From IMG/VR virus record IMGVR_UViG_2671180294_000014: DNA of 33,339 nt. The stretch is one strand, 5' to 3'. Each line of letters opens with the position of its first letter. Position 1 is the first letter of the stretch. Below the pieces are notes generated by a model that was not told the origin of the DNA, searched no databases, and was given only the letters and a program-made list of their open reading frames with translations. The position numbers and the translations under genes were made by a program. Source of the stretch: a virus (lineage: Duplodnaviria > Heunggongvirae > Uroviricota > Caudoviricetes). Positions 1-32,436 of the stretch are shown one piece after another.

Positions 1-981
1 TTATAACGTCACTCCGCCTTTTAGTGGATTCAGAGCGACGGCATTTTGCAGATAGTCAGGCGCAAGGTGCGCATAGGCCATCGTCTGCTGAATGCTCGCA
101 TGTCCCAGAATCTGTTGCAGTGCGATTATATTGCCCCCATTCATCATGAAATGGCTTGCGAATGTATGCCGCAGGATGTGGGTTGCCTGATTGGGTGGTA
201 TATCAGGTTTCACTCTGCGTAAAATCCCGCAAAATTTCTCATAATCAACTTTGAATAATTTGGCGCTGGCCTCCTCTTTAACTTTTTTCTCCAGTTCCTC
301 AGAAATCGGCACGGTTCGCTTTTTACCGTTTTTGGTTTTCAGGAAGGTAACCCTGCAATTTGTAATCTGTGCTGGTTTTAGCGTGGCAACTTTCGTCCAT
401 CTTCCTCCAGTGCTCAGACATAAAAGCGCGACAAGTAAGTCATCACCAGCCAAAACATTTAACAGTTTTTCGATTTCTGCTTTTTCCAGGAACGTCATTT
501 CAGGGTTGGCCTCCGCCAGTGGCGGCAGTCCGTGAATTGGGTGTTGCCCGGAAAATTCATCCAATTGAATTAATTTTGTGAACATGCCGGATAATCTGTA
601 CATGTCACGGTTTATCGTTGCGGCACTGATACCATCACGTAGTCGCATGGAACGATAATCCATCAAAGCCCTTTTGCTCATCCTGCTCACTGGTATATCA
701 CCTATGCCGCTGATGGTTTTGAGTAGATGATTAAACTCTTTTGTTCCATGCTCGTGGTTTTGCCCGTGATATTTCCACCAGATGTCCAGCAACTCACTCA
801 AAGTCCGGCGGTCTGCTCGCTGGCCTCCCCATTCTTTCTGACTGGCATTGGCGATTGTGTATCGCTCAAATGCTAGTGCTTCAGCTTTTCTTTCGAATTT
901 CCTGCGGATGCGTTTTCCGTCGCGACCGCGAGGTCTAATGTCCACTTCATAGCGACCATCATCGAGCTTCTTAATTGCCAT
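1..981 (-). CDS. int: P2-family tyrosine integrase
   Basis: ORF 1..1011(-). Product resembles P2 Int as I recall it (N-term MAIKKLDDGRYEVDIRP; C-terminal HxLRHTFAS...Y catalytic region). Start set at ATG 979-981 by that homology; upstream alternative start at 1011. Stop codon is the first 3 nt of the window, so attL lies outside it. Confidence 0.9.
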   Translation of the reverse strand: MAIKKLDDGRYEVDIRPRGRDGKRIRRKFERKAEALAFERYTIANASQKEWGGQRADRRTLSELLDIWWKYHGQNHEHGTKEFNHLLKTISGIGDIPVSRMSKRALMDYRSMRLRDGISAATINRDMYRLSGMFTKLIQLDEFSGQHPIHGLPPLAEANPEMTFLEKAEIEKLLNVLAGDDLLVALLCLSTGGRWTKVATLKPAQITNCRVTFLKTKNGKKRTVPISEELEKKVKEEASAKLFKVDYEKFCGILRRVKPDIPPNQATHILRHTFASHFMMNGGNIIALQQILGHASIQQTMAYAHLAPDYLQNAVALNPLKGGVTL

Positions 982-1050
982 AAGAAAGCCCTCCGGCGCT
1001 GTATTCACCATCTTGGTAGCAAATGGTGAAAATGTAATCTTTATATAGAG

Positions 1051-1344
1051 TTAGCCAATCCTTTTCGCGGAGTGGTTGGACTCTGTTGACTCTGGCCCAA
1101 TGTGCGCGAGAGCCGGTGCGATTTGTCCTGCGTCCGGCGCGGTTTTATCTGTCATAAGCCATAGAGCATATTTTTGGAATGTGGGATGCATAGTGATTTT
1201 TAGCAAAGCTGTGCCACCGGGTTCAAAGTTTCCTCCTTCATATTTTTTAAGTGTGCTTAGCGGTAACTCTATGATTTCACAGAATTTTGATTGGCTTAGC
1301 CCTTCAGCCTCACGCAAGGCCTTAATCTTTTCGCTTAATTTCAT
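1051..1344 (-). CDS. C: P2-type immunity repressor C (short HTH repressor), sequence diverged from P2 C
   Basis: 97-aa ORF directly upstream of int on the same strand and divergent from cox. Shares the GQIAPALAH C-terminal motif I recall from P2 C; the rest differs. Confidence 0.8.
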   Translation of the reverse strand: MKLSEKIKALREAEGLSQSKFCEIIELPLSTLKKYEGGNFEPGGTALLKITMHPTFQKYALWLMTDKTAPDAGQIAPALAHIGPESTESNHSAKRIG

Positions 1345-1465
1345 TTGACATGGTGCCTATATAGGGACTAAATTCCCTCAAAACTGGAACCTATATAGGT
1401 TCCATTGATTTGAGAATAAACCAGCGTCTAAACGGTTTTGAGTGGTTTAGAAAGGGCTGGATCCT
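1345..1465. promoter_or_regulatory. C/cox divergent promoter-operator switch region (Pe/Pc equivalent)
   Basis: 121-bp gap between divergent C and cox. TTGACA at 1345-1350 with TAAATT 18 nt downstream (candidate rightward promoter). 10-bp palindrome CCTATATAGG occurs twice (1356-1365, 1390-1399); the second sits inside a perfect 18-bp palindrome GGAACCTATATAGGTTCC (1387-1404). Confidence 0.55.
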
Positions 1466-1753
1466 ATGAGGGTACCATATATGGACGCTGAAAATTATGT
1501 GATTCAGTATCCGCTTGATGCGGTTCATGTGGATAAATTTGCTGATTTATTAGGGAAGCCAAAGACAGCCGTCAGTGAAATGGTGAAGGCAAATAAATTA
1601 CCAATTATTGAATTGCGTGATCCTTGCAAACCGAAGGCTCGTGCCGGTGAAAAATGGGTTTTCATTCCTGAGTTTAATCGCGCTGTACGTGAGGCGTTTT
1701 ATAACCGACCGGTTGAACAGCGTGATGCATGGCTTTTGTGGATGGGGTTGTGA
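1466..1753 (+). CDS. cox: Cox-like excisionase / early transcription regulator
   Basis: About 90-95 aa, first gene of the rightward early operon. C-terminal WVFIPEFN...RDAWLLWMGL resembles P2 Cox (WVYLPAWN...RDGWLMWLGL as recalled). Alternative ATG at 1481. Confidence 0.75.
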   Translation: MRVPYMDAENYVIQYPLDAVHVDKFADLLGKPKTAVSEMVKANKLPIIELRDPCKPKARAGEKWVFIPEFNRAVREAFYNRPVEQRDAWLLWMGL

Positions 1754-1755
1754 TT

Positions 1756-1926
1756 ATGAATGAGCCGCGTTGTATTGCTCAGTTATTGCGTAACGAAAGC
1801 CCTAGGGCGATTGACTTCACCATCACCCACGGGAAGGGTCGCAAGGGAATCATTATCCGCACCAAAAAACAGAGTCCGTTAAAAAAGGCTCTGACCTTTC
1901 TGAAAAGCCGGAGGGTCTGGAAATGA
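1756..1926 (+). CDS. small hypothetical early protein (P2 orf78 position)
   Basis: ORF 1729..1926; internal ATG at 1756 sits just after the cox stop. Basic 56-aa product; called by position only. Confidence 0.4.
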   Translation: MNEPRCIAQLLRNESPRAIDFTITHGKGRKGIIIRTKKQSPLKKALTFLKSRRVWK

Positions 1927-2423
1927 CAGTGATGACGCTCAATCTCGTCGAAAAACAGCCAGCAGCTATGCGCCGGATAATTGGTAAGCATCTTGCCGTC
2001 CCTCGTTGGCAGGATACATGTGATTATTATAATCAGATGATGGAGCGCGAACGGCTAACAGTTTGCTTTCATGCGCAGTTAAAACAACGTCACGCAACGA
2101 TGCGTTTTGAAGAAATGAACGACGTCGAACGTGAACGGCTGGTTTGTGCAATTGATGAATTGCGTGGGGCATTCTCAAAACGCCGTCAGGTTGGCGCAAG
2201 TGAGTATGCATATATTAGTTTTTTAACAGTCAGTCAGCGTCGTACTTTATTTATGCATGCCGGATTGACTGAAAAAGAATTCAATCAGCCATACTGGCGA
2301 ATTAATGAAGAGTCATGTTACTGGCGTGATGCTTTATTCCGTGCATTACGTGAACTATTCAGTCTGTTTGAGTATGCACCGACAATTCTGACGTCGGTAA
2401 AACCAGAGCAATATTTGCATTAA
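1923..2423 (+). CDS. B: replication protein B (helicase-loader-like)
   Basis: 166 aa, near-identical to my recollection of P2 gpB (MTVMTLNLVEKQPAAMRRIIGKHLAVPRWQDTCDYYNQMMERERL...). ATG overlaps the upstream stop. Confidence 0.9.
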   Translation: MTVMTLNLVEKQPAAMRRIIGKHLAVPRWQDTCDYYNQMMERERLTVCFHAQLKQRHATMRFEEMNDVERERLVCAIDELRGAFSKRRQVGASEYAYISFLTVSQRRTLFMHAGLTEKEFNQPYWRINEESCYWRDALFRALRELFSLFEYAPTILTSVKPEQYLH

Positions 2424-2486
2424 ATAATTAACCAGAGTTTTTAACGCACTTAATTGTGCGGGGCTTCTTTTTGCCTGGAGAAAGTC

Positions 2487-2711
2487 ATGCATACAGTTTC
2501 TGAAAATCAGTGCGGTAAATACGCATTACTGCTGCAACAGGCCAGAACCGAAGCACAGGCCGACGCTGCGACGCGCTTTTCTTCTCATCTTGACGCCATG
2601 ATTCGCCATATCACAAAGGCGGAGTTATCCCGCGTGGAGATAGTCGAGCTGCTCAGTCAGGAGTCGGAAAAATTTCACAATATCGGATTGTCTCGCGGGG
2701 AGGTGCTTTGA
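2487..2711 (+). CDS. hypothetical early protein (P2 orf80 position)
   Basis: ORF 2454..2711; ATG at 2487 preceded by GGAGAAAG. Translationally coupled to the next ORF. Confidence 0.55.
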
Positions 2712-3010
2712 TGTCCTGTTCTCATTCAGTTGTATTACTGAATAACGCCTTAAAAATCGCCGTTATGAAAAATGGCGACTTGTCTCTTATTCAACTTTGT
2801 CTTGATAAAGAAAAACGCGACATCACTGAATCTGTTATCGCGATTTATCAGAATGAATTAAACCTCCTGTCTGATGTGGTCAATTTACTTGTTAAACGCG
2901 CTGTATTCCACAAGCAAATTTCCTCAGTGGATGAACTGACAAAATTAACGACAGAACTTGCCAGTTATTGCGCTGATGTATCCAGGAAACTTAACGATAA
3001 AAGGAGCTGA
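2711..3010 (+). CDS. hypothetical early protein (P2 orf81 position)
   Basis: ORF 2708..3010; ATG at 2711 overlaps the upstream stop. Confidence 0.55.
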   Translation: MSCSHSVVLLNNALKIAVMKNGDLSLIQLCLDKEKRDITESVIAIYQNELNLLSDVVNLLVKRAVFHKQISSVDELTKLTTELASYCADVSRKLNDKRS

Positions 3011-3012
3011 TA

Positions 3013-3237
3013 ATGCCGGACAACATAGATTTTATTCAGGAACAACAGGCTGAATTACTGGAGCGCCAGATTAACGCGGCAAGGGTAAAACATTGCGGTG
3101 CTTCTGCGCTGGTTTGCGAAGAGTGTGACGCGCCAATTCCTGCTGCCCGTCGTGCGGCTTATCCGTCAGCCACGCGTTGTGTTTCCTGTCAGTCAGTCTT
3201 TGAAGCAAAAAACAAACATTACCGGAGAACGGCATGA
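3013..3237 (+). CDS. TraR/DksA-family C4 zinc-finger protein (P2 orf82 position)
   Basis: 74 aa with CxxC-N17-CxxC (CEECDAPIPAARRAAYPSATRCVSCQ). AAGGAG RBS 6 nt upstream of ATG 3013. Confidence 0.75.
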   Translation: MPDNIDFIQEQQAELLERQINAARVKHCGASALVCEECDAPIPAARRAAYPSATRCVSCQSVFEAKNKHYRRTA

Positions 3238-3509
3238 GTATTCGTATTGAAATTGGCGAACGTTATGTCGTTACCAGTGACAGCTTCCAGTTTATTCTCC
3301 ACGAGAAAAAGAGAGCGGAAAGCGGTAAAAACGCCGGTCAGGAATGGCTGGCGGTGGTTGGTTATTACCCGAAATTAAGCCAGCTCGTTTCCGGCCTGAT
3401 GCATCACGATATTCTGACCGGAAGCGCAAAGTCTTTTGCTGATTTAAACGCGCAGGTTGAGCAACTCAGCAAGCGTTGTTCAGAGGCTTTTGGCTCATAT
3501 GGCCGTTAA
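3234..3509 (+). CDS. hypothetical early protein (P2 orf83 position)
   Basis: 91-aa ORF; ATG overlaps the upstream stop; 3' end overlaps the start of A. Confidence 0.55.
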   Translation: MSIRIEIGERYVVTSDSFQFILHEKKRAESGKNAGQEWLAVVGYYPKLSQLVSGLMHHDILTGSAKSFADLNAQVEQLSKRCSEAFGSYGR

Positions 3510-5796
3510 AGCCTCCGGGCGTTTTGTCCCTCCGTCAGCATTTGCTGCAGGCACCGGTAAGGCGTTTACCGGTGCTTATGCATGGAACGCGCCACGCGAG
3601 GCTGTCGGGCGCGAAAGACCCCTTACACGTGACGAGATGCGTCAGGTGCAAGGTGTTTTATCCACGATTAACCGCCTGCCTTACTTTTTGCGCTCGCTGT
3701 TTACGTCACGCTATGACTACATCCGGCGCAATAAAAGCCCGGTGCACGGGTTTTATTTCCTCACATCCACTTTTCAGCGTCGTTTATGGCCGCGCATTGA
3801 GCGTGTGAATCAGCGCCATGAAATGAACACCGACGCGTCGATGCTGTTTCTGGCTGAGCGTGACCACTATGCGCGCCTGCCGGGAATGAATGACAAGGAG
3901 CTGAAAAAGTTTGCCGCCCGTATCTCATCGCAGCTTTTCATGATGTATGAGGAACTCAGCGATGCCTGGGTGGATGCGCATGGCGAAAAAGAATCGCTGT
4001 TTACGGATGAGGCGCAGGCTCACCTCTATGGTCATGTTGCTGGCGCTGCACGTGCTTTCAATATTTCCCCTCTCTACTGGAAAAAATACCGTAAAGGACA
4101 GATGACCACGAGGCAGGCATATTCTGCCATTGCCCGTCTGTTTAACGATGAGTGGTGGATTAGTCAGCTTAAAGGCCAGCGTATGCGCTGGCATGAGGCG
4201 TTACTGATTGCTGTCGGGGAGGTCAATAAAGACCGTTCTCCTTATGCCAGTAAACATGCCATTCGTGATGTGCGTGCACGCCGCCAGGCAAATCTGGAAT
4301 TTCTTAAATCGTGTGATCTCGAAAACAGGGAAACAGGCGAGCGCATCGACCTTATCAGTAAGGTGATGGGCAGTATTTCTAATCCTGAAATTCGCCGGAT
4401 GGAGCTGATGAACACCATTGCCGGTATTGAGCGTTACGCCGCCGCAGAAGGTGATGTGGGGATGTTTATCACGCTGACCGCGCCGTCAAAGTATCACCCG
4501 ACACGTCAGGTTGGAAAAGGCGAAAGTAAAACCGTCCAGCTAAATCACGGCTGGAACGATGAGGCATTTAATCCAAAGGATGCGCAGCGTTATCTCTGCC
4601 GTATCTGGAGCCTGATGCGCACGGCATTCAAGGATAATGATTTACAGGTCTACGGTTTGCGAGTCGTCGAGCCACACCACGACGGAACGCCGCACTGGCA
4701 TATGATGCTTTTTTGTAATCCACGCCAGCGTAACCAGATTATCGAAATCATGCGTCGCTACGCGCTCAAAGAGGATGGCGACGAAAGAGGAGCTGCGCGA
4801 AACCGTTTTCAGGCAAAACATCTTAATCGGGGCGGTGCTGCGGGGTATATCGCGAAATACATCTCAAAAAATATCGACGGCTATGCACTGGATGGGCAGC
4901 TCGATAACGATAGCGGCAGACCGCTGAAAGATACTGCCGCGGCTGTTACCGCATGGGCGTCAACGTGGCGCATTCCGCAATTTAAAACGGTTGGCCTGCC
5001 GACAATGGGGGCTTACCGTGAACTACGCAAATTGCCTCGCGGCGTCAGCATTGCTGATGAGTTTGACGAGCGCGTCGAGGCTGCACGCGCCGCCGCAGAC
5101 AGTGGTGATTTTGCGCTGTATATCAGCGCGCAGGGTGGGGCAAATGTCCCGCGCGATTGTCAGACTGTCAGGGTCGCCCGTAGTCCGTCGGATGAAGTTA
5201 ACGAGTACGAGGAAGAAGTCGAGAGAGTGGTCGGCATTTACGCGCCGCATCTCGGCGCGCGTCATATTCATATCACCAGAACGACGGACTGGCGCATTGT
5301 TCCGAAAGTGCCGGTCGTTGAGCCTTTGACTTTAAAAAGCGGCATCGCCGCGCCTCGGAGTCCTGTCAATAACTGTGGAAAGCTCACTGGTGGTGATACT
5401 TCGTTACCGGCTCCCACACCTTCTGAGCACGCCGCAGCAGTGCTTAATCTGGTAGATGACGGTGTTATCGAATGGAATGACCCGGAGGTTGTGAGGGCGC
5501 TCAGAGGTGCATTAAAACACGGACTGAGAAGACCAAACCGTCAGCAAAGAAACGGAAGCCCGTTAAAACCGCATGAAATAGCGCCATCGGCCAGACTGAC
5601 CCGGTCGGAACGAATGCAAATTACCCGTATCCGCGTTGACCTTGCTCAGAACGGTATCAGGCCGCAGCGATGGGAGCTTGAGGTGCTGGCGCGTGGGGCA
5701 ACCGTAAATTATGACGGGAAAAAATTCACTTACCCGCTCGCTGATGAGTGGTCGGGATTCTCAACAGTATTAGAGTCAAACTCAGTGAAGCGTTAA
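3499..5796 (+). CDS. A: replication initiation protein A (rolling-circle initiator)
   Basis: ORF 3457..5796; start set at ATG 3499 (MAVKASGRFVPP...), matching my recollection of P2 gpA over its whole length (765 aa here). Confidence 0.93.
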   Translation: MAVKASGRFVPPSAFAAGTGKAFTGAYAWNAPREAVGRERPLTRDEMRQVQGVLSTINRLPYFLRSLFTSRYDYIRRNKSPVHGFYFLTSTFQRRLWPRIERVNQRHEMNTDASMLFLAERDHYARLPGMNDKELKKFAARISSQLFMMYEELSDAWVDAHGEKESLFTDEAQAHLYGHVAGAARAFNISPLYWKKYRKGQMTTRQAYSAIARLFNDEWWISQLKGQRMRWHEALLIAVGEVNKDRSPYASKHAIRDVRARRQANLEFLKSCDLENRETGERIDLISKVMGSISNPEIRRMELMNTIAGIERYAAAEGDVGMFITLTAPSKYHPTRQVGKGESKTVQLNHGWNDEAFNPKDAQRYLCRIWSLMRTAFKDNDLQVYGLRVVEPHHDGTPHWHMMLFCNPRQRNQIIEIMRRYALKEDGDERGAARNRFQAKHLNRGGAAGYIAKYISKNIDGYALDGQLDNDSGRPLKDTAAAVTAWASTWRIPQFKTVGLPTMGAYRELRKLPRGVSIADEFDERVEAARAAADSGDFALYISAQGGANVPRDCQTVRVARSPSDEVNEYEEEVERVVGIYAPHLGARHIHITRTTDWRIVPKVPVVEPLTLKSGIAAPRSPVNNCGKLTGGDTSLPAPTPSEHAAAVLNLVDDGVIEWNDPEVVRALRGALKHGLRRPNRQQRNGSPLKPHEIAPSARLTRSERMQITRIRVDLAQNGIRPQRWELEVLARGATVNYDGKKFTYPLADEWSGFSTVLESNSVKR

Positions 5797-5882
5797 CTCA
5801 ATAAATATGAGTTTATAAGTTAGGCCTCGAGATTTTGTAGAAAGGGATGTATACTGAGTATCGTATAGATTTGGAGTGAGTG

Positions 5883-6905
5883 ATGACTGTAAAGGTGATA
5901 GACCTTTTTTGTGGTGCTGGCGGATTAACTCATGGTTTGCAGCTTGCGGGGCTTGATGTCGTTGCAGGCATTGACCTTGAGGGGGAATGTAGGTTTCCCT
6001 ATGAAAGAAACAATAAATCTAAGTTTATTGAGCAAGATATCGCTAAAGTAACAAAAGAGGAACTGCTGAGGCTTTATGGTGATGCGTCTGTAAAAGTATT
6101 GGCAGGATGCGCACCTTGCCAACCTTTTTCAAAATATACTCAAGGAAAAGATAAGGCTGATGATAAAAAATGGCCTCTTCTTTATGAGTTCGAACGTTTA
6201 ATTCGCGAAGTATCTCCAGAAATCGTAACAATGGAGAACGTTCCTGATGTAACTAAACATAAAGTTTATAATGATTTTTATAATTCATTGTTAAAGTTGG
6301 GCTATTATGTTTGGGCGTCTAAGATTGATTGTGTCGAATATGGAATCCCACAAAACCGTTCCCGTCATGTATTGTTGGCCTCAAAATTGGGGGCGATTGA
6401 GTTAGTAAAACGTGACGATGTTATTTTGAAAACAGTTAGAGATGCAATAGGAAATCTTCCTCCATTAGAAGATGGCCAAACAGATCCAAATGATATATTA
6501 CATAGAGCCAGTAAATTAAATCCGATTAATAAAAAAAGAATTATACACTCTGTTCCTGGTGGTACATGGAAGGACTGGCCGAAAGAGTTGGTTGCCGCTT
6601 GTCATATGAAATCCAGCGGTAAAGGGTATGCTAGTGTATATGGGCGCATGTCTTGGGATAAGCCAAGTCCAACAATTACAACTCTTTGTTATGGTTTCGG
6701 GAATGGGCGTTTTGGACATCCAGAACAGCATAGAGCGATTTCTCTTAGAGAGGCTGCTTTATTGCAAACTTTCCCGATGGATTATATTTTTGTAGAAGAC
6801 AAAAACAAGTTTGTTATAAGAAGTATTGGGAAAATGATAGGTAATGCTGTTCCTGTGGAACTAGGAAAAGCAATTGGGCAATCAATCAAGAACCATTTAG
6901 AATGA
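5883..6905 (+). CDS. DNA (cytosine-5)-methyltransferase, no recognisable cognate restriction endonuclease
   Basis: ORF 5880..6905; ATG 5883 with GGAG 6 nt upstream. Canonical C5-MTase motifs seen directly: I DLFCGAGG, IV PCQPFS (catalytic Cys), VI ENV, VIII QNRSRHV, X GNAVPV. AT-rich compared with the phage backbone. Confidence 0.9.
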   Translation: MTVKVIDLFCGAGGLTHGLQLAGLDVVAGIDLEGECRFPYERNNKSKFIEQDIAKVTKEELLRLYGDASVKVLAGCAPCQPFSKYTQGKDKADDKKWPLLYEFERLIREVSPEIVTMENVPDVTKHKVYNDFYNSLLKLGYYVWASKIDCVEYGIPQNRSRHVLLASKLGAIELVKRDDVILKTVRDAIGNLPPLEDGQTDPNDILHRASKLNPINKKRIIHSVPGGTWKDWPKELVAACHMKSSGKGYASVYGRMSWDKPSPTITTLCYGFGNGRFGHPEQHRAISLREAALLQTFPMDYIFVEDKNKFVIRSIGKMIGNAVPVELGKAIGQSIKNHLE

Positions 6906-6911
6906 TAAAAT

Positions 6912-6928
6912 GGCCTGCTTTACAGGCC
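6912..6928. terminator. bidirectional intrinsic terminator between convergent genes
   Basis: GGCCTG-cttta-CAGGCC hairpin flanked by an A-run on the left and a T-rich stretch on the right, between the MTase stop (6905) and the stop of the minus-strand gene (6935). Confidence 0.6.
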
Positions 6929-6934
6929 TTATAA

Positions 6935-7615
6935 CTATTGTTCTAAATATTCATTATTATTTATATAGTGCTCTATATTATTCACGATAGCATCAAGATA
7001 GGCGATTACTTCTAATGAAATATTCTCTAAGTCCTGATATGAAACATTTTTTCCAATCTCAGCAAATGATACATTGCCATGAGATAAATCATTACGATGT
7101 TGTTTAACAGTGGCTAATTTTTCACCATGTTTAGTGTGAGTGTAATCGGAATGTGTAGAAAAACCATATATTTTCGATTTTTCTTTGATTTCCTCTCTAT
7201 CAATATTTCCTGAGAATATTTTCTTTTTGTTGAACGTGCCATAAGATATACCGCAAGATATACCTTTGGTAAGGTGATTAACTAAACTTTCAACATTTAC
7301 AGATTCATTTTTTAATCTTTTTAATATTTCTGACCTGAGATTTTTCCTGAGTTTGTCAAATTCTACGTTTCTATCATAAATAGTCTCATGAATAAGGCAG
7401 ATAGCTTCTCTCATTGTTGATTCAATGAGGTTATATAACAGTATATATACTGCTCCCTTTAGAGTTTTTCGTGATTGAGCAGTAATGGAGAACTTATGTT
7501 CTTTATCATCAGCTGATATCAGTTCTGCACCGGCATACTCAATAAATTTCAAAAGATCCAAATAGGCCAAGATCTCTCCTGACCTTTCGTCAAAATCCTC
7601 ACGAAAACGATCCAT
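6935..7615 (-). CDS. hypothetical protein with HEPN-like Rx4H motif; downstream gene of the two-gene cargo operon
   Basis: 226-aa ORF. ATG at 7615 lies 1 nt after the upstream gene's TAA (TAAcATG); GAGGA RBS. C-terminal region has KQHRNDLSHGN, matching the HEPN Rx4-6H signature. Strongly AT-rich. Confidence 0.65.
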   Translation of the reverse strand: MDRFREDFDERSGEILAYLDLLKFIEYAGAELISADDKEHKFSITAQSRKTLKGAVYILLYNLIESTMREAICLIHETIYDRNVEFDKLRKNLRSEILKRLKNESVNVESLVNHLTKGISCGISYGTFNKKKIFSGNIDREEIKEKSKIYGFSTHSDYTHTKHGEKLATVKQHRNDLSHGNVSFAEIGKNVSYQDLENISLEVIAYLDAIVNNIEHYINNNEYLEQ

Positions 7616-7616
7616 G

Positions 7617-8759
7617 TTAATCCTCTAATAATTTATCCCGAACATATTCAATTCGTTCAATTACCTTCACGCGACTATTAGCTCCGTCGGAAGTGGTCAA
7701 TCGTTTGAATTCTTCTGAGCTTAGCCAATCTAAGTTCTTGGGAACAAGGTCAGGGACTTCACGTAATGCAAGTGCTGCGCCAACAGCGAGAGATTCGAAT
7801 CTAACTCGAGGTGTAGATTTTGCAGTAATAGTTTTCTTGAATCCTGCTGGGAAATAGTTTTCAACAAAAGATAGAACATTAGCAAACTCTTGTTTCATTG
7901 AGTTTTGTTTAGTTTCGTCTATATCTCGATTTTCTGACATATAGTCATTTAGAAAATCCCGTACGGAATGATCAAAGTTCTTGTACTTATCTACGTAGGC
8001 AAAGAATCTTAATGTAAATTCTAACCGTTCATCTCGTTTTTCTTTAGTCTGAGATAAAGGTGCTAATTCTTTAAATTTAGGTATTGTTGAGCATGGCTTA
8101 ATAACCTGTGTATATAAATTTGTTGAACCAAGTTCTGATCCTTTACGGACTTCCATATCTTTCAATATATCGCTGCCAGAGTTAATACGCTCAAAAAGAT
8201 CTCTACGGGTTTCTTCATTGCATTTAGAACTCAATTCTATAACGCGGACAGGAATTCTCATGAAACGACGTTGACGTGATAATGGTAAATCTTGGAATTT
8301 GAAACCATTAAGGACGTCTAAAGATTTCAGGTCTTGTAAAACTAATTCATTTTGGATAAAAGCGTGTATAGTCCTAACTCGTTGTGAGCCATCAACAATC
8401 TCAATTCGCCCATCTAAATCGGGATCTTCGGAGAGAACATCTGCTATAAATATATATGGTATAGGAAAACCCAAAATCAAAGACTCTATCAATTTTGATT
8501 GTCTTTTTTCACTCCAAACAAAATCCCTTTGATAATCAGGAACAAAGAGTTCGTTAGTATCATCCTCTAATCCGTTATGATACTTATTAACTAATAACTC
8601 AACGGTAAATTCTTTGGTCTCAAAATCCACATCCTTTTGCTCAGCACGAATTTGCTCTTCAGCGTTTTGCTTTATCACCTCTAGCTGAGCAAGCAACTCT
8701 GCTCTTTTCTTGGCATTATCTTCATTTTCTAGTTGAGATTTTAAATCAATAATGTCCAT
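7617..8759 (-). CDS. DUF262 (ParB/Srx-like, GmrS-type) domain protein; upstream gene of the two-gene cargo operon
   Basis: ORF 7617..8777 (TTG start); ATG at 8759 preferred (AAGGGAA 6 nt upstream). Shows DUF262 hallmark motifs: PDYQRDFVW and IEIVDGSQR (DGQQR-type). N-terminal coiled-coil-like segment. No HNH/DUF1524 motifs found in the C-terminal half. Confidence 0.7.
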   Translation of the reverse strand: MDIIDLKSQLENEDNAKKRAELLAQLEVIKQNAEEQIRAEQKDVDFETKEFTVELLVNKYHNGLEDDTNELFVPDYQRDFVWSEKRQSKLIESLILGFPIPYIFIADVLSEDPDLDGRIEIVDGSQRVRTIHAFIQNELVLQDLKSLDVLNGFKFQDLPLSRQRRFMRIPVRVIELSSKCNEETRRDLFERINSGSDILKDMEVRKGSELGSTNLYTQVIKPCSTIPKFKELAPLSQTKEKRDERLEFTLRFFAYVDKYKNFDHSVRDFLNDYMSENRDIDETKQNSMKQEFANVLSFVENYFPAGFKKTITAKSTPRVRFESLAVGAALALREVPDLVPKNLDWLSSEEFKRLTTSDGANSRVKVIERIEYVRDKLLED

Positions 8760-8944
8760 GTCTAGTTCCCTTAACAAGTGTTAAAAATTGAAGCGGATAG
8801 CATACCGCATAGATCATGAAAAATGCCATCATGTGCATGGATTTGCATGCGTCAGAAGTCGCTTTTATTGTTAGTTATCACTAGCGCTGGCGTGCTCTTG
8901 GAGTGTTCATGCAACTGCATTAAAACCGCCCCATGAAGCGGGCG

Positions 8945-20802: not shown

Positions 20803-23121
20803 ATGAGCACAAAATTCAGAACCGTTATCACCACTGCCGGTGCAGCAAAGCTGGCAGCGGCAACCGCACCGGGAGGGCGGAAGGTCAACATTACCACGAT
20901 GGCCGTCGGGGATGGCGGTGGTAAATTGCCTGTCCCGGATGCCGGACAGACCGGGCTTATCCACGAAGTCTGGCGACATACGCTGAACAAAATCAGCCAG
21001 GACAAACGAAACAGTAATTATATTATCGCAGAGCTGGTTATTCCGCCGGAGGTGGGCGGTTTCTGGATGCGTGAGCTTGGCCTGTACGATGATGCGGGAA
21101 CGTTAATTGCCGTGGCGAACATGGCCGAAAGTTATAAGCCAGCTCTTGCCGAAGGCTCAGGGCGTTCGCAGACCTGTCGCATGGTCATCATCGTCAGCAG
21201 TGTGGCCTCGGTGGAGCTGACCATTGACACCACAACGGTGATGGCGACACAGGATTACGTTGATGACAAAATTGCAGAGCACGAACAGTCACGACGTCAC
21301 CCGGACGCCTCGCTGACCGCAAAAGGTTTTACTCAGTTAAGCAGTGCGACCAACAGCACGTCTGAAACACTGGCCGCAACGCCGAAAGCGGTAAAGGCCG
21401 CCTATGACCTTGCTAACGGGAAATATACCGCACAGGACGCTACCACAGCTCGAAAAGGTCTTGTCCAGCTCAGTAGTGCCACCAACAGCACGTCTGAAAC
21501 GCTTGCGGCAACGCCAAAGGCGGTTAAGACAGCGTATGACCTTGCTAACGGGAAATACACTGCACAGGACGCCACTACAGCGCGAAAAGGTCTTGTCCAG
21601 CTCAGTAGCGCCACCAACAGCGATTCTGAAACGCTTGCGGCAACACCAAAGGCGGTTAAGACAGCGTATGACCTTGCTAACGGGAAATACACTGCACAGG
21701 ATGCCACCACAGCGCGAAAAGGTCTTGTCCAGCTAAGTAGTGCCATCAACAGCGATTCTGAAACGCTGGCCGCAACGCCAAAAGCAGTGAAGTCTGCCTA
21801 TGACAATGCTGAAAAACGTCTTCAGAAAGATCAGAACGGTGCGGATATTCCGGGAAAGGATACCTTCACGAAAAATATCGGTGCCTGTCGTGCTTATAGC
21901 GGCGCTTTGAGCACTGAAGCCGGAAACTGGACAACCGCTCAGTTTATTGAATGGCTGGATTCCCGTGGTGCATTTAATCATCCGTACTGGATGTGCAAAG
22001 GCTCCTGGTCATATGCAAATAACAAAATCATTACGGATACCGGATGTGGTGATATCCACCTGGCTGGTTGTGTCGTCGAGGTCATGGGAACTAAATCTGC
22101 AATCACTATCCGAGTGACCACGCCAACAACATCAAGCGGTGGCGGTACAACCAGCGCGCAATTCACTTACATAAATCATGGGGACGGCTACTCCCCCGGC
22201 TGGCGTCGTGACTGGAATCGTCAGGGCGACTCAATGACCGGAACGATTAATCAGGATGGCGGAAGCCAGAATGCCTATATGTCTACGGCCTTATGTTCAG
22301 GCACCAGAGGCGGCAAAAAATATCTCAGAAAGTTTCGTGGTGGAGAAGGAGATACTATCTGGCATGAAACAGTTCAGGGCGGGGTAATTCGCTGGGCGAC
22401 AGGAAACAATGACGCTCAGGAAGAATTATCACTCAGCTCCGCTTATGGTCTCCGTTCAAGAGGTGAAATTACATCACTCAGTGCTAATGGTCTGCGCATT
22501 GCTTATGGCAATTATGGATTCTTTATCAGGAATGATGGCGGCAGCACATATTTAATGCTGACGGCCTCTGGCGATAAATTTGGGACATGGAACGGCTTAA
22601 GACCGCTGACTATCAATAACGCCAATGGCGGAGTGTCAATGGGGCATGGCCTGAGTGTTACAGGTGATATTGTCTCAAGTACCAAAGTACGTGCCGGTAG
22701 CGGGAAAAAGTTCACGGTCAGCAGCAGCAATACATCCACGAAGGAAGCCGCATTCAATTTGTGGGGAAACTCAAGTCGTCCTGTGGTGGCTGAATTAGGT
22801 GATGATGCAGGCTGGCATTTTTACAGTCAGAGAAATACAGATAACAGCATCACTTTTGCTGTTAACGGGCAGGTATCACCATCTAACTATGGCAACTTTG
22901 ATTCACGCTATGTCCGGGATATCCGGCTTGGTGGTGCTGCCACATACAAACCTGCGAACAATGGTATGACATGGACACATCAGGCACCGTCCGGGTGTGT
23001 ATATTCCGGCATTATTGTTCAGGATACCGGCTCAAACTCTGCCGATAACATTGGTGGCGTATATTACAGACCGGTGCAGAAATACATTAACGGGACTTGG
23101 TATAACGTGGCACAGGTATAA
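20803..23121 (+). CDS. H: tail fibre protein H with expanded internal tandem repeats
   Basis: 772 aa. The N-terminal ~170 aa follow the conserved tail-fibre pattern; then repeats of ...LSSATNSTSETLAATPKAVK.AYDLANGKYTAQDATTARKGLVQ...; the C-terminal part is lower in GC and likely the receptor-binding region. Confidence 0.9.
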   Translation: MSTKFRTVITTAGAAKLAAATAPGGRKVNITTMAVGDGGGKLPVPDAGQTGLIHEVWRHTLNKISQDKRNSNYIIAELVIPPEVGGFWMRELGLYDDAGTLIAVANMAESYKPALAEGSGRSQTCRMVIIVSSVASVELTIDTTTVMATQDYVDDKIAEHEQSRRHPDASLTAKGFTQLSSATNSTSETLAATPKAVKAAYDLANGKYTAQDATTARKGLVQLSSATNSTSETLAATPKAVKTAYDLANGKYTAQDATTARKGLVQLSSATNSDSETLAATPKAVKTAYDLANGKYTAQDATTARKGLVQLSSAINSDSETLAATPKAVKSAYDNAEKRLQKDQNGADIPGKDTFTKNIGACRAYSGALSTEAGNWTTAQFIEWLDSRGAFNHPYWMCKGSWSYANNKIITDTGCGDIHLAGCVVEVMGTKSAITIRVTTPTTSSGGGTTSAQFTYINHGDGYSPGWRRDWNRQGDSMTGTINQDGGSQNAYMSTALCSGTRGGKKYLRKFRGGEGDTIWHETVQGGVIRWATGNNDAQEELSLSSAYGLRSRGEITSLSANGLRIAYGNYGFFIRNDGGSTYLMLTASGDKFGTWNGLRPLTINNANGGVSMGHGLSVTGDIVSSTKVRAGSGKKFTVSSSNTSTKEAAFNLWGNSSRPVVAELGDDAGWHFYSQRNTDNSITFAVNGQVSPSNYGNFDSRYVRDIRLGGAATYKPANNGMTWTHQAPSGCVYSGIIVQDTGSNSADNIGGVYYRPVQKYINGTWYNVAQV
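21325..21805 (+). repeat. about 3.6 tandem copies of a 132-bp (44-codon) in-frame repeat inside H
   Basis: The string caacagc(a/g)(c/a)(g/t)tctgaaac recurs at 21351, 21483, 21615 and 21747, exactly 132 bp apart; the translated units are near-identical. Confidence 0.9.
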
Positions 23122-23124
23122 TTT

Positions 23125-23652
23125 ATGCAGCATTTGATAAATATAACGGCAGGTAATCCAAAAACGGTTGAACAATATCAATTGACAAAGGACTTTGATG
23201 TTGTCTGGTTTTTTTCAGAAGATGGTAAGAACTGGTACGAAGAACAAAAGTATTTTGCTGATGACACGATAAAAATAGCGTACGACAAAGATAATATTAT
23301 CCGCTATGTGGAAAAGGATGTGACAGCTATCAGACCGGATGGATTAAGTGTTGTTGAAGTGCCGGATATTACTGCTAACCGACGGGCGGACATTTCAGGG
23401 AACTGGATGTTTAAGGACTGTACAGTGATTAAACGAATTTATACGGCAGAGGAATTGCAGCAGCAGGCAGAAAATCGGAAAGCCAGACTTCTTGCAGATG
23501 CTGAATCCGTGATTTTGCCGCTGGAGCGCGCTGTCAGGCTGAATATGGCAACAGATGAGGAGCGCAGTCGACTGGAGGCATGGGAACGCTACAGTGTTCT
23601 GGTCAGTCGTGTGGATCCTGCAAATCCTGAATGGCCGGAAATGCCGCAATAA
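23125..23652 (+). CDS. G: tail fibre assembly protein (chaperone)
   Basis: 175 aa directly after H; position and size match P2 gpG. Confidence 0.85.
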
Positions 23653-23766
23653 GTTGTATGAGCTCTGGTGTGAGCTTACATATCTATGGCACAGAGTAAA
23701 GCCTAATCTGAGAGTCCGCTCTGTGCCAGAAGTAGACGCACAAGGTGGGCGTGTCTTTTTCTTAAG

Positions 23767-25185
23767 CTACATCGGGCTCTTATATGGGGAATGAGAGTTT
23801 TTGAAACGCGGTTCTTCATGCTTCGGACTGTAAATTCTTGCATGATTATCTATCACAACTTTACTTCCAAGAATATCTCGAGCTTCTCCTAACGACCACA
23901 CAGTAGAAAGATCATTAGTCAAATTTCGATAGAGAGCACGAAACCCCTTGGGTTTTTTAAGATCATATAAGAAATCAGGAACTTTAACTTTAAAATTAAA
24001 GGTCGGTAGTTTCGGAAGGGAATTAATAGCCGCAACAGTATTGTATACATGTACAAGCTTAGTTACAGGTACACCTTGTCTAGTCTTGAGCCCATACTTA
24101 GTTCGAATATAATCTGATTCTTTCGATACTTCAGTAAGCAATGCTCTTACTGACTTATTAGCTTGAGGCAATTCATTTTCATCAAACAAGCGCTTTATTT
24201 CTCGCATTTTCTCACGGGCCCTTACAAATTCGTTGTTGTCCCTTATGTTATAAGCAGCTTCAACAATACAACTTGGATCACCAGTTTCTTTTGCGAGCCA
24301 TGCCGAAAATAAAGGAAGCGAAGTTGCTGTTGCTACAGCTTTACCACCAGAATGAATATCAATGAGATCATGACTTAACGAAGTGGAAAAGTTTTCTACA
24401 ATATGTTTAGCATAGTCAAAACCATACTGACAGTTTTGGCTTAAATATGTCTGTTGATACGCCTGACGTAATGGATATAAAAAAGTATCTGCTTGAAGGT
24501 ACTTAGCTGTGAGAGAATAAAATACTGCCCGATTAGCCAGCCATACAAGCGAAGCCACGAATGCTTTGATTGCATCTGATGCTTCACCAGCAGATGTGCC
24601 ATCCCCCCATTTTGCTCCGGGAACTTTGTACCCCTTGCGAATAGGGTTGCCAAATCGATCGAGAAGTTCAACATCGCCATTTGTTCTATTACCAGACTCA
24701 GCAGCATCACGCAGTTCTGAAAAAATGGCAGCAGCAATGTTACCATATTTTTCAAACTCCTTACCTCCATCAGATAAGTTCTTCAGTGTTAGATGATAAA
24801 CACTTGAACTAATGTCCCATGTACATATGATATGTGTCTGAAGAAGTTCAATTAGTTTTTTAAAATCGTCATTAACAAATGTTCCACCACGAATTTTAGG
24901 TTTCAATGCATCAGATATTTTTTTTGCTTCACTTTCAATTTCATCCAACCCATATTGTGCTTTATCAAGAAATAATATCTCTCTGAAACTTGAAATCCTA
25001 CTCCCACGGTACTCTGGAATATAATCATCAACCGCGATAACGTGATCATAGAACAAAATAGACTGTATATAGTTCTCAAATGCTATTATGTCTGTATCTA
25101 CTGAGTCCTTCGATCTTGTTTTTACTTTCCCCTCGATTCTTTGGACTGCAGTTAGAGTTGAATTATCAATCAGTGCGTATGTCAT
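23767..25185 (-). CDS. hypothetical 472-aa protein, AT-rich cargo at the P2 Z/fun position
   Basis: Long clean ORF on the strand opposite to the flanking late genes. ATG at 25185 with AAGGA RBS. Markedly AT-rich. No Walker, HNH, PD-(D/E)xK or MTase motifs recognised; the only weak feature is a C-terminal RIYSPKH (Rx5H). Confidence 0.7.
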   Translation of the reverse strand: MTYALIDNSTLTAVQRIEGKVKTRSKDSVDTDIIAFENYIQSILFYDHVIAVDDYIPEYRGSRISSFREILFLDKAQYGLDEIESEAKKISDALKPKIRGGTFVNDDFKKLIELLQTHIICTWDISSSVYHLTLKNLSDGGKEFEKYGNIAAAIFSELRDAAESGNRTNGDVELLDRFGNPIRKGYKVPGAKWGDGTSAGEASDAIKAFVASLVWLANRAVFYSLTAKYLQADTFLYPLRQAYQQTYLSQNCQYGFDYAKHIVENFSTSLSHDLIDIHSGGKAVATATSLPLFSAWLAKETGDPSCIVEAAYNIRDNNEFVRAREKMREIKRLFDENELPQANKSVRALLTEVSKESDYIRTKYGLKTRQGVPVTKLVHVYNTVAAINSLPKLPTFNFKVKVPDFLYDLKKPKGFRALYRNLTNDLSTVWSLGEARDILGSKVVIDNHARIYSPKHEEPRFKNSHSPYKSPM

Positions 25186-25454
25186 TTACATTCCTTAAAT
25201 AAAAAACATTAATGGTTGCTCCAAAAATACTAGCAACCTTATTTCAGTGAAGTCAATTTTTTAACATTAATCATTTACACACGCTTGAAAAGTGATCGCT
25301 GAAAATGGCATTTACTACATTATCAAAGTTCCCATCGAAGATAATCGAAATTTTTCCCGGTAGCAGATATCGTGAGATTTAACGCTTTTCGCTCATAGCA
25401 GGCTGTCAGATTTGATAGCGTTTGGGCTATGTAAACTGTCAGTCGGAAAATGAG

Positions 25455-25472
25455 TGTGTACAAATCAGGACA
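25455..25472 (+). promoter_or_regulatory. candidate Ogr-dependent late promoter element (TGT-N12-ACA) upstream of FI
   Basis: TGTgtacaaatcaggACA about 125 bp upstream of the FI start, fitting the dyad of P2 late-promoter activator sites; followed by the palindrome GCGGGCGAATTGCCCGC (25474-25490). Confidence 0.5.
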
Positions 25473-25595
25473 TGCGGGCGAATTGCCCGCATTTTCTTTA
25501 TCTGTTGTTTCATCCACTGACCAGCCAGGTCAAATAGCGTCTCATGCACTGCCCAACAGAAAATAGTTGCACCCATTAACCACGGAGTTAAACGG

Positions 25596-27801: not shown

Positions 27802-30245
27802 CAATGTAAAATTACAGGTATTGCTCAGGGCTGTTGACCAGGCGTCCCGCCCGTTTAAATCCATCCGCAGAGCGAGTAAGTTGCTGTCGGGGGATATCCG
27901 GGAAACACAAAAATCACTGCGCGAGCTGAACGGTCACGCATCCCGTATTGAGGGATTCCGCAAGACCAGTGCACAGCTCGCCGTGACTGGTCATGCACTT
28001 GAAAAGGCACGGCAGGAGGCCGAAGCCCTTGCCACACAGTTTAAAAACACCGAACGCCCGACCCGTGCTCAGGCGAAAGTGCTGGAATCCGCAAAGCGTG
28101 CGGCGGAGGACTTACAGGCGAAATATAACCGCCTGACAGATTCCGTTAAACGCCAGCAGCGGGAACTGGCCGCTGTGGGAATTAATACCCGCAATCTTGC
28201 ACATGATGAGCAGGGACTGAAAAACCGTATCAGTGAAACCACCGCCCAGCTTAACCGGCAGCGTGACGCGCTGGCGCGTGTCAGTGCGCAACAGGCAAAA
28301 CTTAACGCAGTCAAACAGCGTTATCAGGCCGGAAAGGAACTGGCCGGAAATATGGCCTCAGTGGGCGCTGCCGGTGTGGGGATTGCTGCTGCGGGAACGA
28401 TAGCCGGAGTTAAGCTGCTGATGCCAGGTTATGAGTTTGCGCAGAAAAACTCAGAATTGCAGGCTGTGCTCGGTGTGGCAAAAGACTCCGCCGAAATGGC
28501 TGCACTCCGCAAGCAGGCGCGCCAGCTCGGTGACAACACCGCCGCCTCAGCGGATGATGCGGCCGGTGCACAGATTATCATTGCGAAAGCGGGTGGGGAT
28601 GTTGATGCCATTCAGGCGGCAACGCCGGTCACGCTGAATATGGCGCTGGCGAACCGCCGCACAATGGAAGAAAACGCCGCCCTGCTGATGGGGATGAAAT
28701 CCGCCTTTCAGCTTTCAAACGATAAGGTCGCTCATATCGGGGATGTTCTCTCCATGACGATGAACAAAACCGCCGCTGATTTTGACGGCATGAGCGATGC
28801 GCTGACCTATGCCGCACCAGTGGCAAAAAATGCCGGTGTCAGCATTGAAGAAACCGCCGCAATGGTCGGGGCGCTGCATGATGCAAAAATCACAGGCTCA
28901 ATGGCGGGGACGGGAAGCCGTGCCGTGTTAAGTCGCCTGCAGGCACCGACTGGAAAAGCATGGGATGCACTCAAAGAGCTTGGCGTGAAAACCTCAGACA
29001 GTAAGGGAAACACCCGACCAGTATTTACCATTCTGAAAGAAATGCAGGCCAGCTTTGAGAAAAACCGGCTCGGTACTGCCCAGCAGGCCGAATACATGAA
29101 AACCATTTTCGGGGAGGAGGCCAGCTCAGCCGCCGCTGTGCTGATGACTGCCGCGTCAACCGGAAAGCTGGACAAACTGACCGCTGCGTTTAAAGCCTCA
29201 GACGGGAAGACCGCAGAGCTGGTAAATATCATGCAGGACAACCTCGGCGGTGACTTTAAGGAGTTTCAGTCCGCTTATGAGGCGGTGGGGACAGACCTGT
29301 TTGACCAGCAGGAAGGCGCGCTACGTAAGCTCACGCAGACGGCCACAAAGTATGTGTTAAAACTCGACGGCTGGGTACAGAAAAACAAATCACTGGCGTC
29401 AACCATTGGCCTCATTGCCGGTGGCGCGCTGGCGCTGACTGGCATCATCGGTGCAATTGGTCTTGTAGCCTGGCCGGTTATCACCGGCATCAATGCCATC
29501 ATCGCGGCAGCAGGCGCAATGGGGGCAATCTTCACGACGGTTGGTAGTGCCGTTATGACGGCCATCGGGGCGATTAGCTGGCCGGTTGTGGCTGGGGGGG
29601 NNNNNNNNNNNNNTCGCCGGGGCGTTGCTTATCCGTAAATACTGGGAGCCTGTCAGCGCATTCTTTGGCGGTGTGGTTGAAGGGCTGAAAGCGGCATTTG
29701 CGCCGGTGGGGGAGCTGTTCACGCCACTGAAACCGGTGTTTGACTGGCTGGGCGAAAAGTTACAGGCTGCGTGGCAGTGGTTTAAAAACCTGATTGCCCC
29801 GGTCAAAGCCACCCAGGACACCCTGAACCGTTGCCGTGACACGGGCGTCATGTTCGGGCAGGCACTGGCTGACGCGCTGATGCTGCCGCTTAATGCGTTC
29901 AACAAATTGCGCAGCGGCATTGACTGGGTACTGGAAAAGCTCGGGGTCATCAACAAAGAGTCAGACACACTTGACCAGACCGCCGCCAGAACTCATGCCG
30001 CCACGTATGGCACCGGTGGTTATATTCCGGCGACCAGCTCTTATGCAGGCTATCAGGCTTATCAGCCGGTCACGGCACCGGCTGGCCGCTCTTATGTGGA
30101 CCAGAGTAAAAACGAATATCACATCAGCCTGACGGGTGGTACTGCACCGGGGACACAGCTTGACCGCCAGTTACAGGATGCGCTCGAAAAATACGAGCGG
30201 GATAAACGTGCGCGCGCCCGTGCCAGCATGATGCATGACGGTTAA
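27794..30245 (+). CDS. T: tail tape measure protein, interrupted by an assembly gap
   Basis: ORFs 27794..29638 and 29586..30245 together equal P2 gpT in length (about 815 aa). A run of 13 N at 29601-29613 breaks the frame. Ala/Gly-rich with hydrophobic segments. Confidence 0.88.
29601..29613. other. assembly gap (13 N) after a poly-G tract
   Basis: Literal n characters in the sequence, preceded by GGGGGGG. Confidence 0.99.
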
Positions 30246-32355: not shown

Positions 32356-32436
32356 ATCCTCAATTTGCCTGCTGCTTAATGCATTGCAGATGATTTGCTT
32401 CCGTTATACTAGCGTCAGTTGATAGCGGGAGTATTT

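Follow-up and report, generated by a model that had tools for sequence, protein, structure and literature searches.

In P2-like phages, the interval between the replication gene gpA and cos/gpQ holds variable cargo genes, and Rousset et al. (2022) recorded 1,650 gene arrangements at this position in 18,150 Escherichia coli loci (mean 3.2 kb). The same interval was named 'P2 defence hotspot #1' by Vassallo et al. (2022), with a second hotspot at fun/Z, and validated defence systems are strongly over-represented in it (Rousset et al. 2022; Vassallo et al. 2022). Among the systems validated against phage T4 is PD-T4-2 from E. coli ECOR65, which consists of a DUF262 protein and a RiboL-PSP/MAE_28990-like HEPN protein (Vassallo et al. 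2022). A genomic neighbourhood of MAE_28990 HEPN genes with genes for a ParB-like nuclease and a DNA methylase was described earlier in a computational survey (Anantharaman et al. 2013), and an arrangement of methylase, DUF262, and HEPN genes is already listed in Table S5A of Rousset et al. (2022), where it was not among the systems tested. Here, such a trio is described from the virus record IMGVR_UViG_2671180294_000014, a stretch of 33,339 bp (hereafter called the window) containing a P2-like prophage, in which the three genes occupy an AT-rich island between gene A and cos (positions 5797–8944).

The methylase, DUF262, and HEPN genes form one conserved three-gene module, which lies in a horizontally acquired, AT-rich cargo cassette (approximately 5752/5777 to 8833) at the gpA–cos–gpQ hotspot, in place of the P2 genes orf91, tin, and old. 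As to function, sequence comparisons lean towards a methylation-gated, restriction-modification-like defence system expressed from the lysogen. The hotspot finding itself was known before, the locus being a textbook-grade case of the P2 gpA–cos–gpQ cargo slot; the value lies in the cargo, i.e., a compact and widely transferred 3-kb trio that was noted computationally in 2013 and catalogued at the hotspot in 2022. The cargo genes are (E-values in brackets):

5883–6905, plus strand: C5-cytosine (m5C) DNA methyltransferase, 340 amino acids (Pfam PF00145 over its full length, 3.4e-58; NCBIfam dcm superfamily, 1.4e-37)
6935–7615, minus strand: HEPN protein of the MAE_28990 family, 226 amino acids (Pfam PF18737, 5.8e-29, profile positions 6–211 of 211; PF18735, 8e-09)
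7617–8759, minus strand: DUF262 protein (GmrSD_N, ParB/Srx-like nucleoside triphosphatase (NTPase)), 380 amino acids (Pfam PF03235, 8.2e-26; DGSQR motif at residues 123–127)

Catalytic motifs are intact in all three island proteins, and those of the DUF262 and HEPN proteins are nearly universal among their homologues. In the methylase, motifs I, IV, VI, VIII, and X are all preserved (FCGAGG at residues 9–14, PCQPFS at 78–83 including Cys79, ENV at 118–120, QNRSR at 157–161, and GNAVP at 320–324), and its E. coli copy in RefSeq at 99% identity (WP_001697730) carries the very accession given for the methylase of the module listed earlier at the hotspot. Sequence matches of the methylase in the PDB (HaeIII, DNMT1, HhaI) were restricted to the conserved motifs. 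An orthology to E. coli Dcm (CCWGG) was considered and rejected, as only the N-terminal catalytic motifs align to Dcm (25% identity) and the target-recognition region does not.

The HEPN protein scored 102.2 bits against the PF18737 family profile, for which the curated cut-off is 26.8, and thus belongs to HEPN_MAE_28990. Its Rx4H motif (R174–H179, RNDLSH) is kept in 76 of 77 homologues, and the protein is predicted to be the nuclease effector of the module. It also matched PHROG 3846 (2e-91), a family of unknown function, and none of the PADLOC models even at an E-value of 10. The DUF262 stop codon is located 1 nt before the HEPN ATG, the two genes forming one operon convergent to the methylase gene. 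Pfam matches of the DUF262 protein were confined to residues 64–212, and its AlphaFold2 model (predicted local distance difference test (pLDDT) 84.6) comprises an N-terminal helix, a ParB/Srx-like domain, and an all-helical C-terminal half. The structural matches of this model, i.e., BrxU (top match), SspE, DndI, and the CTP-switch proteins ParB/Noc, all run through the NTPase domain; an HNH/DUF1524 domain was absent by Pfam as well as in the model, and the helical C-terminal half gave no informative structural match. Searches by sequence matched no solved structure for either the DUF262 or the HEPN protein. The PADLOC model 'REase_II' matched the DUF262 region weakly (9.4e-06), and no recognisable restriction endonuclease fold was found in the cargo proteins, which hold ParB-like and HEPN domains only.

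To place the trio in a broader context, 80 loci were fetched via alignment of DUF262 homologues from one-per-species genomes (44–83% identity), spanning Cyanobacteria, Planctomycetota, Acidobacteriota, Bacteroidota, Verrucomicrobiota, Gamma-, Beta-, and Deltaproteobacteria, Lentisphaerae, and Leptospira. In 76 of the 77 evaluable loci, the gene immediately after DUF262 is that of the HEPN protein, and an m5C methylase gene lies at a distance of at most 1.5 kb in 44 of 55 evaluable loci, 35 of these methylases being close orthologues (E-value < 1e-90). Hence, the neighbourhood described in 2013 is present in the window and in 44 of the 55 evaluable related loci. Across the 80 loci, the methylase gene was found downstream and convergent (29 loci), upstream and co-directional (29), or downstream and co-directional (3), and it often abuts or overlaps the DUF262 open reading frame (ORF). 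The three proteins co-diverge, with Mantel correlations of r = 0.88 (DUF262 vs. HEPN), 0.78 (DUF262 vs. methylase), and 0.80 (HEPN vs. methylase) that were reached in none of 2000 permutations, the test speaking to co-inheritance and not to function. A methylase family that stays linked to the DUF262–HEPN pair and co-diverges with it across rearrangements and phyla argues for a restriction-modification logic. The loci without such a methylase nearby, which are weighed below (L060, L063, L065, L067, L074, L076, L081, L086, L088, and L089), mostly carry DGTQR instead of DGSQR; L065 and L086 have an N6/N4 methylase and a BamHI-family endonuclease as neighbours, and in L060 the catalytic arginine of the HEPN motif is lost.

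The trio also travels between unrelated mobile elements. In lambdoid prophages of Klebsiella pneumoniae it is found in the nin region with the same arrangement and 85–87% amino-acid identity (loci L091–L094, positions 8001–10886), as a moron flanked by replication genes (O/P or DnaC-like) on one side and by the RusA/antiterminator-Q region on the other. With this internal arrangement it also occurs in a Tatumella prophage and in the P2-like phage P24B2 (Peduovirus, L095), in both cases at the P2 hotspot used in the window, as well as in Moraxella catarrhalis phages, and in E. coli GN04592 it stands behind a DUF3850 gene and a hypothetical gene. The methylase is the slowest-evolving member of the trio, with about 73% identity to that of P24B2 vs. 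45% and 30% for the pair, and 59% to that of the Moraxella phages vs. 43% and 32% for the other two proteins. Conservation in its target-recognition region equals or exceeds that in the catalytic core, which, together with the slow evolution of the protein, fits one fixed recognition sequence.

The position of the cassette is defined by conserved flanks. Three features of the backbone delimit it:

3457–5796, plus strand: replication gene A (RefSeq-equivalent start at 3499; Pfam Phage_GPA, 2e-123)
8945–8963, no strand assigned: cos, 19-nt cohesive end GGCGAGGCGGGGAAAGCAC, an exact match to P2 cosL/cosR as annotated in NC_001895
9131–10165, minus strand: portal gene Q, to the right of cos

The initial annotation had described the interior as AT-rich and of different codon usage between GC-rich, P2-like flanks, and both parts of this description were borne out. 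With gene A ending at 5796 and the exact P2 cos starting at 8945, the island in between (5797–8944) has a GC content of 36.4% compared to 53.1% in the rest of the prophage; in 500-bp windows, the island reached 0.356 ± 0.026 vs. 0.561 ± 0.030 in the late-gene backbone (n = 198), and the lowest-GC window of 3148 bp in the entire 33-kb sequence starts at 5701. The GC content at third codon positions (GC3) is 0.287 in the methylase, 0.256 in the HEPN, and 0.270 in the DUF262 gene (i.e., 0.26–0.29) vs. 0.542, 0.649, and 0.714 in the backbone genes A, Q, and P (0.54–0.71).

Comparison to other phages agreed with the further proposals that the interval is one of the two variable cargo positions of P2-like phages (Rousset et al. 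2022; Vassallo et al. 2022; the other being fun/Z) and that the island replaces P2 tin/old, and the interior proved not to be conserved core of related phages. In a megablast search of positions 5000–9800 against 50,697 phage records, 109 records matched the flanks and none of them covered the interior, and among 5,426 complete E. coli genomes only nine carry the same interior (eight at about 98% and one at 89% identity). Eight comparators were aligned, i.e., P2, the cdt-carrying "Escherichia phage P2" (strain T22), Yersinia phage vB_YpM_50, Salmonella phage STYP1, vB_EcoM-569R9, phage 899, pro483, and pro147. Their A and cos–Q flanks share 92–97% identity with the window, and their interiors share no similarity, each phage carrying a different cargo (orf91-tin-old; cdtABC; DUF3850 and a hypothetical gene; a Fic protein; DUF4209; an exoribonuclease and a hypothetical gene; DUF4238; reverse transcriptases), all of 33–42% GC and 1.2–3.8 kb in length. 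In position, conserved flanks, and replaced interior, the locus is thus a member of the gpA–cos–gpQ hotspot #1. Like the old–tin locus of P2, the cargo of the window lies between the gpA 3' end and cos/gpQ, is of similar size (3.2 kb in P2, 3.1 kb here) and GC content (35% and 36%), and has its cos-nearest cargo transcribed leftward, away from cos; the genes themselves are unrelated, with an OLD-family ATPase/nuclease and Tin in P2 and methylase, DUF262, and HEPN here. Compared to E. coli GN04592, the island has 89.0% identity, Q and P 96–98%, and A 94%, and this mismatch between island and backbone points to separate histories of the two.

A retron Ec48 module (reverse transcriptase and effector) is located between cos and the portal gene Q in Escherichia phage pro147 (positions 3457–5796), where the variable region contains a cos-like 85-bp match at its middle, which suggests that cargo can be inserted on either side of cos.

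The breakpoints of the cassette were refined by alignment to the P2-like phages, and three segments border the cargo genes:

5752–5796, plus strand: junction zone, cargo-specific 3' tail of gene A (from BLASTN ends and a multiple alignment)
8760–8833, minus strand: module-specific upstream region of the DUF262–HEPN operon, which runs co-linearly with the module of E. coli GN04592 and is lacking in the other P2-like phages
8834–8944, no strand assigned: conserved cos-proximal backbone, not cargo, with TGCAT boxes at 8834, 8844, and 8916 and a spacer varying in sequence

On the left side, BLASTN homology to the eight phages stops at 5751, 5759, 5760, 5766, or 5776, i.e., within the last 20–45 nt at the 3' end of A, and in the multiple alignment the final block common to nearly all phages, GCTGATGAGTGG, ends at 5751; the last 7–15 codons of A differ by cargo and travel with the cassette. 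On the right side, homology restarts at 8835–8916 depending on the phage, and in hundreds of E. coli genomes the match begins no earlier than about 8820–8883. The TGCAT boxes are located exactly 111, 101, and 29 bp before cos both in the window and in P2, and across the ten P2-like sequences compared, the TGCAT-N5-TGCAT element and the third TGCAT are always aligned. For the old–tin transcript of P2, the mapped starts are just on the cargo side of these boxes. We infer that 8834–8944 belongs to the backbone, as part of the packaging signal, as a shared outward-facing control region, or as both; the TGCAT boxes themselves may belong to the packaging signal or act as a control element shared by whichever cargo is nearest to cos. 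The refined breakpoints and the fixed boxes show where cassettes can be swapped without harm to cos function.

The initial annotation had taken the island boundaries as those of a swappable cassette and the island as a mosaic insertion. A cassette it is, with its true extent running from about 5752/5777 to 8833 rather than from 5797 to 8944. The separate histories of island and backbone fit the mosaic part of that description, and replacement is favoured over insertion: the island is bordered by no direct or inverted repeats other than chance-level matches of 12–20 nt, and its ORFs include no recombinase gene. A transposon- or integron-like insertion was rejected on these grounds, and replacement via recombination in the conserved flanks is indicated instead, with homologous exchange there as what would be the simplest mechanism.

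Two candidate expression signals were identified within the cassette, both by consensus matches only, promoter-like sites being no more numerous than in shuffled sequence:

5827–5855, plus strand: sigma-70-like promoter candidate, TCGAGA-17-TATACT, upstream of the methylase gene (consensus scan)
6912–6928, no strand assigned: GC-rich hairpin GGCCTG-CTTTA-CAGGCC between the convergent genes (terminator scan, minus strand 6928–6912, 7 pairs, tail ATTTTATCAT)

The methylase ATG is preceded by GGAG at a distance of 9 nt. The hairpin is likely the terminator of the DUF262–HEPN operon and possibly also that of the methylase gene.

In a methylation-gated system, the methylase would label host and prophage DNA as self at one fixed sequence. 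DUF262, like its structural relatives BrxU, SspE, and DndI, would be an NTP-driven sensor of the modification state of DNA that responds to incoming DNA without the mark, and would then license the HEPN protein, whose nuclease domain is the only canonical one among the three proteins, to halt the infection by nucleic-acid cleavage. RNA would be the most likely target, because HEPN domains are typically RNases; alternatively, the ParB-like domain could cleave DNA. Post-segregational stabilisation of the prophage would be a side effect. In its most specific form, this reading would make the trio an experimentally undescribed kind of restriction-modification, in which cytosine methylation marks self, the ParB-like NTP switch of DUF262 reads the absence of the mark, and a HEPN RNase executes; we put this form forward tentatively, as a possibility with the odds against it. 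If true, P2-like and lambdoid prophages, along with elements of at least seven bacterial phyla, would have disseminated an epigenetically gated abortive-infection system as a moron.

Several points weigh against a methylation-gated system. The Mantel correlations would equally result from plain co-transfer without functional coupling. In a cyanobacterial subclade that accounts for ten of the 55 evaluable loci, the ±7 kb around the pair are free of m5C methylase genes, and nine of these ten loci keep the catalytic motifs, so that a methylase linked in cis is not obligatory. In the deposited genome of P24B2, the methylase gene (L095, positions 1994–3041) is frameshifted at the PGG(T/D)W position and the pair is intact; the frameshift may be a sequencing error and, if real, bears on the need of the pair for the methylase. 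The sigma-70 scan upstream of the DUF262–HEPN operon gave weak matches only (at most 8 of 12 positions), and neither the Dcm alignment nor the PDB sequence matches gave a specificity for the methylase. Among DUF262 relatives, BrxU and GmrSD have been characterised, and both attack DNA that is modified rather than unmodified. A literature search on the MAE_28990 family returned the 2013 computational survey alone and no functional study of the trio. Finally, PD-T4-2 has no methylase and protects against T4 both natively and in K-12 without one.

The last of these points also speaks for the explanation that DUF262 and HEPN are a self-contained, PD-T4-2-like sensor-effector or abortive-infection system triggered by something other than missing methylation (for example modified cytosines, as with GmrSD and BrxU, or a phage protein), with the methylase as a passenger that, for example, protects phage progeny from restriction in new hosts or serves as an epigenetic or anti-restriction gene. 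This would agree with the match of the DUF262 protein to PD-T4-2_A over the full length (2.5e-35), with the roughly 18% of evaluable loci that lack a linked m5C methylase and yet retain catalytic motifs, with the best structural relatives being sensors of modified DNA, and with the location of the methylase gene on the opposite strand behind a promoter-like site of its own. A passenger, however, would hardly be expected to adjoin the pair across phyla and in three arrangements as an orthologous, co-diverging methylase with a conserved target-recognition region; moreover, a pair that sensed m5C would make the methylase beside it self-toxic, and the HEPN partner is unmatched by the PD-T4-2_B model. 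We therefore consider a self-contained pair an unlikely, if serious, candidate. The linkage and co-divergence are likewise the pattern of type II restriction-modification addiction modules, and the trio could be primarily selfish, with the methylase as antidote and DUF262–HEPN as a stable toxin acting by post-segregational killing, and any anti-phage effect secondary. The horizontal spread between unrelated phage families and across phyla and the frequent occurrence of HEPN proteins as toxins of toxin-antitoxin systems fit such a role; that pairs without a methylase occur and that the hotspot is enriched for validated defence systems does not, and addiction would in any case not exclude defence, being compatible with a methylation-gated system as well as with a PD-T4-2-like pair. 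As the primary function, addiction appears improbable. Some cargo of the hotspot is non-defensive (e.g., the cdt toxin and partition systems), and the trio might accordingly be a lysogenic-conversion module for epigenetic regulation or a set of chance-adjacent remnants of unrelated morons. Against the three-gene synteny over at least seven phyla, the co-divergence, the intact catalytic motifs, and the established association of all three domains with defence, this appears highly improbable.

The trio offers a clean test of how DUF262 sensors couple to non-HNH effectors and of whether a DNA methyl mark can gate a HEPN nuclease. A natural comparison set exists in the occurrence of the trio in two phage families, the P2 relative with a 45%-identical pair member but a 73%-identical methylase, and the methylase-less cyanobacterial pairs.

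The window as a whole represents a P2-like prophage in prophage orientation with the full P2 gene order, i.e., int (1–1011, minus strand), C, cox, B, homologues of orf80–83, A, the island, cos, Q, P, O, N, M, L, the tail genes, D, and ogr. The early/immunity region (1–3250; int, C, cox, B, orf80–83) has a GC content of 42–49% and the late genes one of 52–62%, with both cargo islands lower still. The second P2 hotspot (fun/Z), between the tail-fibre assembly gene G and the sheath gene FI, is an AT-rich stretch at about 22750–25500 (GC 0.38, GC3 0.27). Two further features of the window are:

23767–25185, minus strand: ORF of 472 amino acids, the sole ORF at the fun/Z hotspot (PHROG 13435, function unknown, full length, 9.6e-294)
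32419–33339, plus strand: host gene fieF, cation diffusion facilitator (CDF) cation efflux transporter, at the right end of the window (NCBIfam equivalog, 1.7e-186)

The ORF at fun/Z had no match in Pfam, NCBIfam, or PADLOC and is a candidate for an uncharacterised defence gene. In the closest complete E. coli genomes, cpxP adjoins the same prophage on the int side, which together with fieF at the right end places the integration in the cpxP–fieF intergenic region; the host of the prophage is Escherichia-like. The assembly is of draft quality. In gene N (13024–14096, major capsid), a 1-nt deletion at about 13550 relative to P2 and to the prophage of E. coli JNE120442 (AAATACCG-AATG) results in two ORFs (13024–13572 and 13569–14096), reflecting either a defective prophage or a sequencing error. 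In the tape-measure gene T, 13 Ns at 29601–29613 follow a G7 homopolymer and break the reading frame, which indicates a draft-quality or masked assembly.

Among the described systems, PD-T4-2 shares the two-gene logic of a DUF262 protein without DUF1524 and a small HEPN protein of the RiboL-PSP/MAE_28990 clade, and the DUF262 protein aligned to the PD-T4-2_A model (PADLOC PDLC04027) over profile positions 55–356 of 363. Apart from the methylase, the differences concern the effector: the HEPN protein has only the Pfam clade (PF18737/PF18735) in common with its counterpart, the PD-T4-2_B model remaining unmatched even at an E-value of 10, and with about 1.5 kb for the whole PD-T4-2 system, its B protein has to fall well short of the 226 amino acids found here. 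Menshen (NsnA-NsnB-NsnC; Millman et al. 2022; NAR 2025, gkaf357) resembles the trio in combining a ParB-DUF262 domain with a helical C-terminal domain, and the DUF262 protein scored better on NsnA (1.7e-54, profile positions 25–376 of 385) than on PD-T4-2_A (2.5e-35); in place of the NsnB ATPase and NsnC effector genes, which are not among the three island ORFs, HEPN and methylase genes are present. Membership in PD-T4-2 or Menshen is thus ruled out by the unmatched HEPN partner and the missing NsnB and NsnC, respectively.

With GmrSD and BrxU, the DUF262 protein shares the N-terminal NTPase domain with its DGxQR motif, BrxU being the top structural match. Those proteins, like SspE and DndI, carry DUF1524/HNH, whereas a separate HEPN protein takes the effector position here, and the type IV enzymes GmrSD and BrxU have no cognate methylase, whereas one is linked here; a GmrSD-type type IV enzyme was ruled out, since neither Pfam nor the structural model gave a DUF1524/HNH domain. 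Type II restriction-modification systems are similar in their tightly linked, co-inherited methylase and nuclease genes that are mobile as a cassette, the methylase of the trio being active-looking, and they differ in that the trio has no recognisable PD-(D/E)xK, HNH, or GIY-YIG endonuclease, its candidate 'R' component being a ParB-like NTPase plus HEPN. A further parallel is found in PrrC-EcoprrI, where PrrC is an NTPase-regulated HEPN RNase functionally tied to a restriction-modification system, and it is on this precedent that HEPN proteins linked to restriction-modification were proposed to form a multi-pronged or suicidal second line of defence (Anantharaman et al. 2013).

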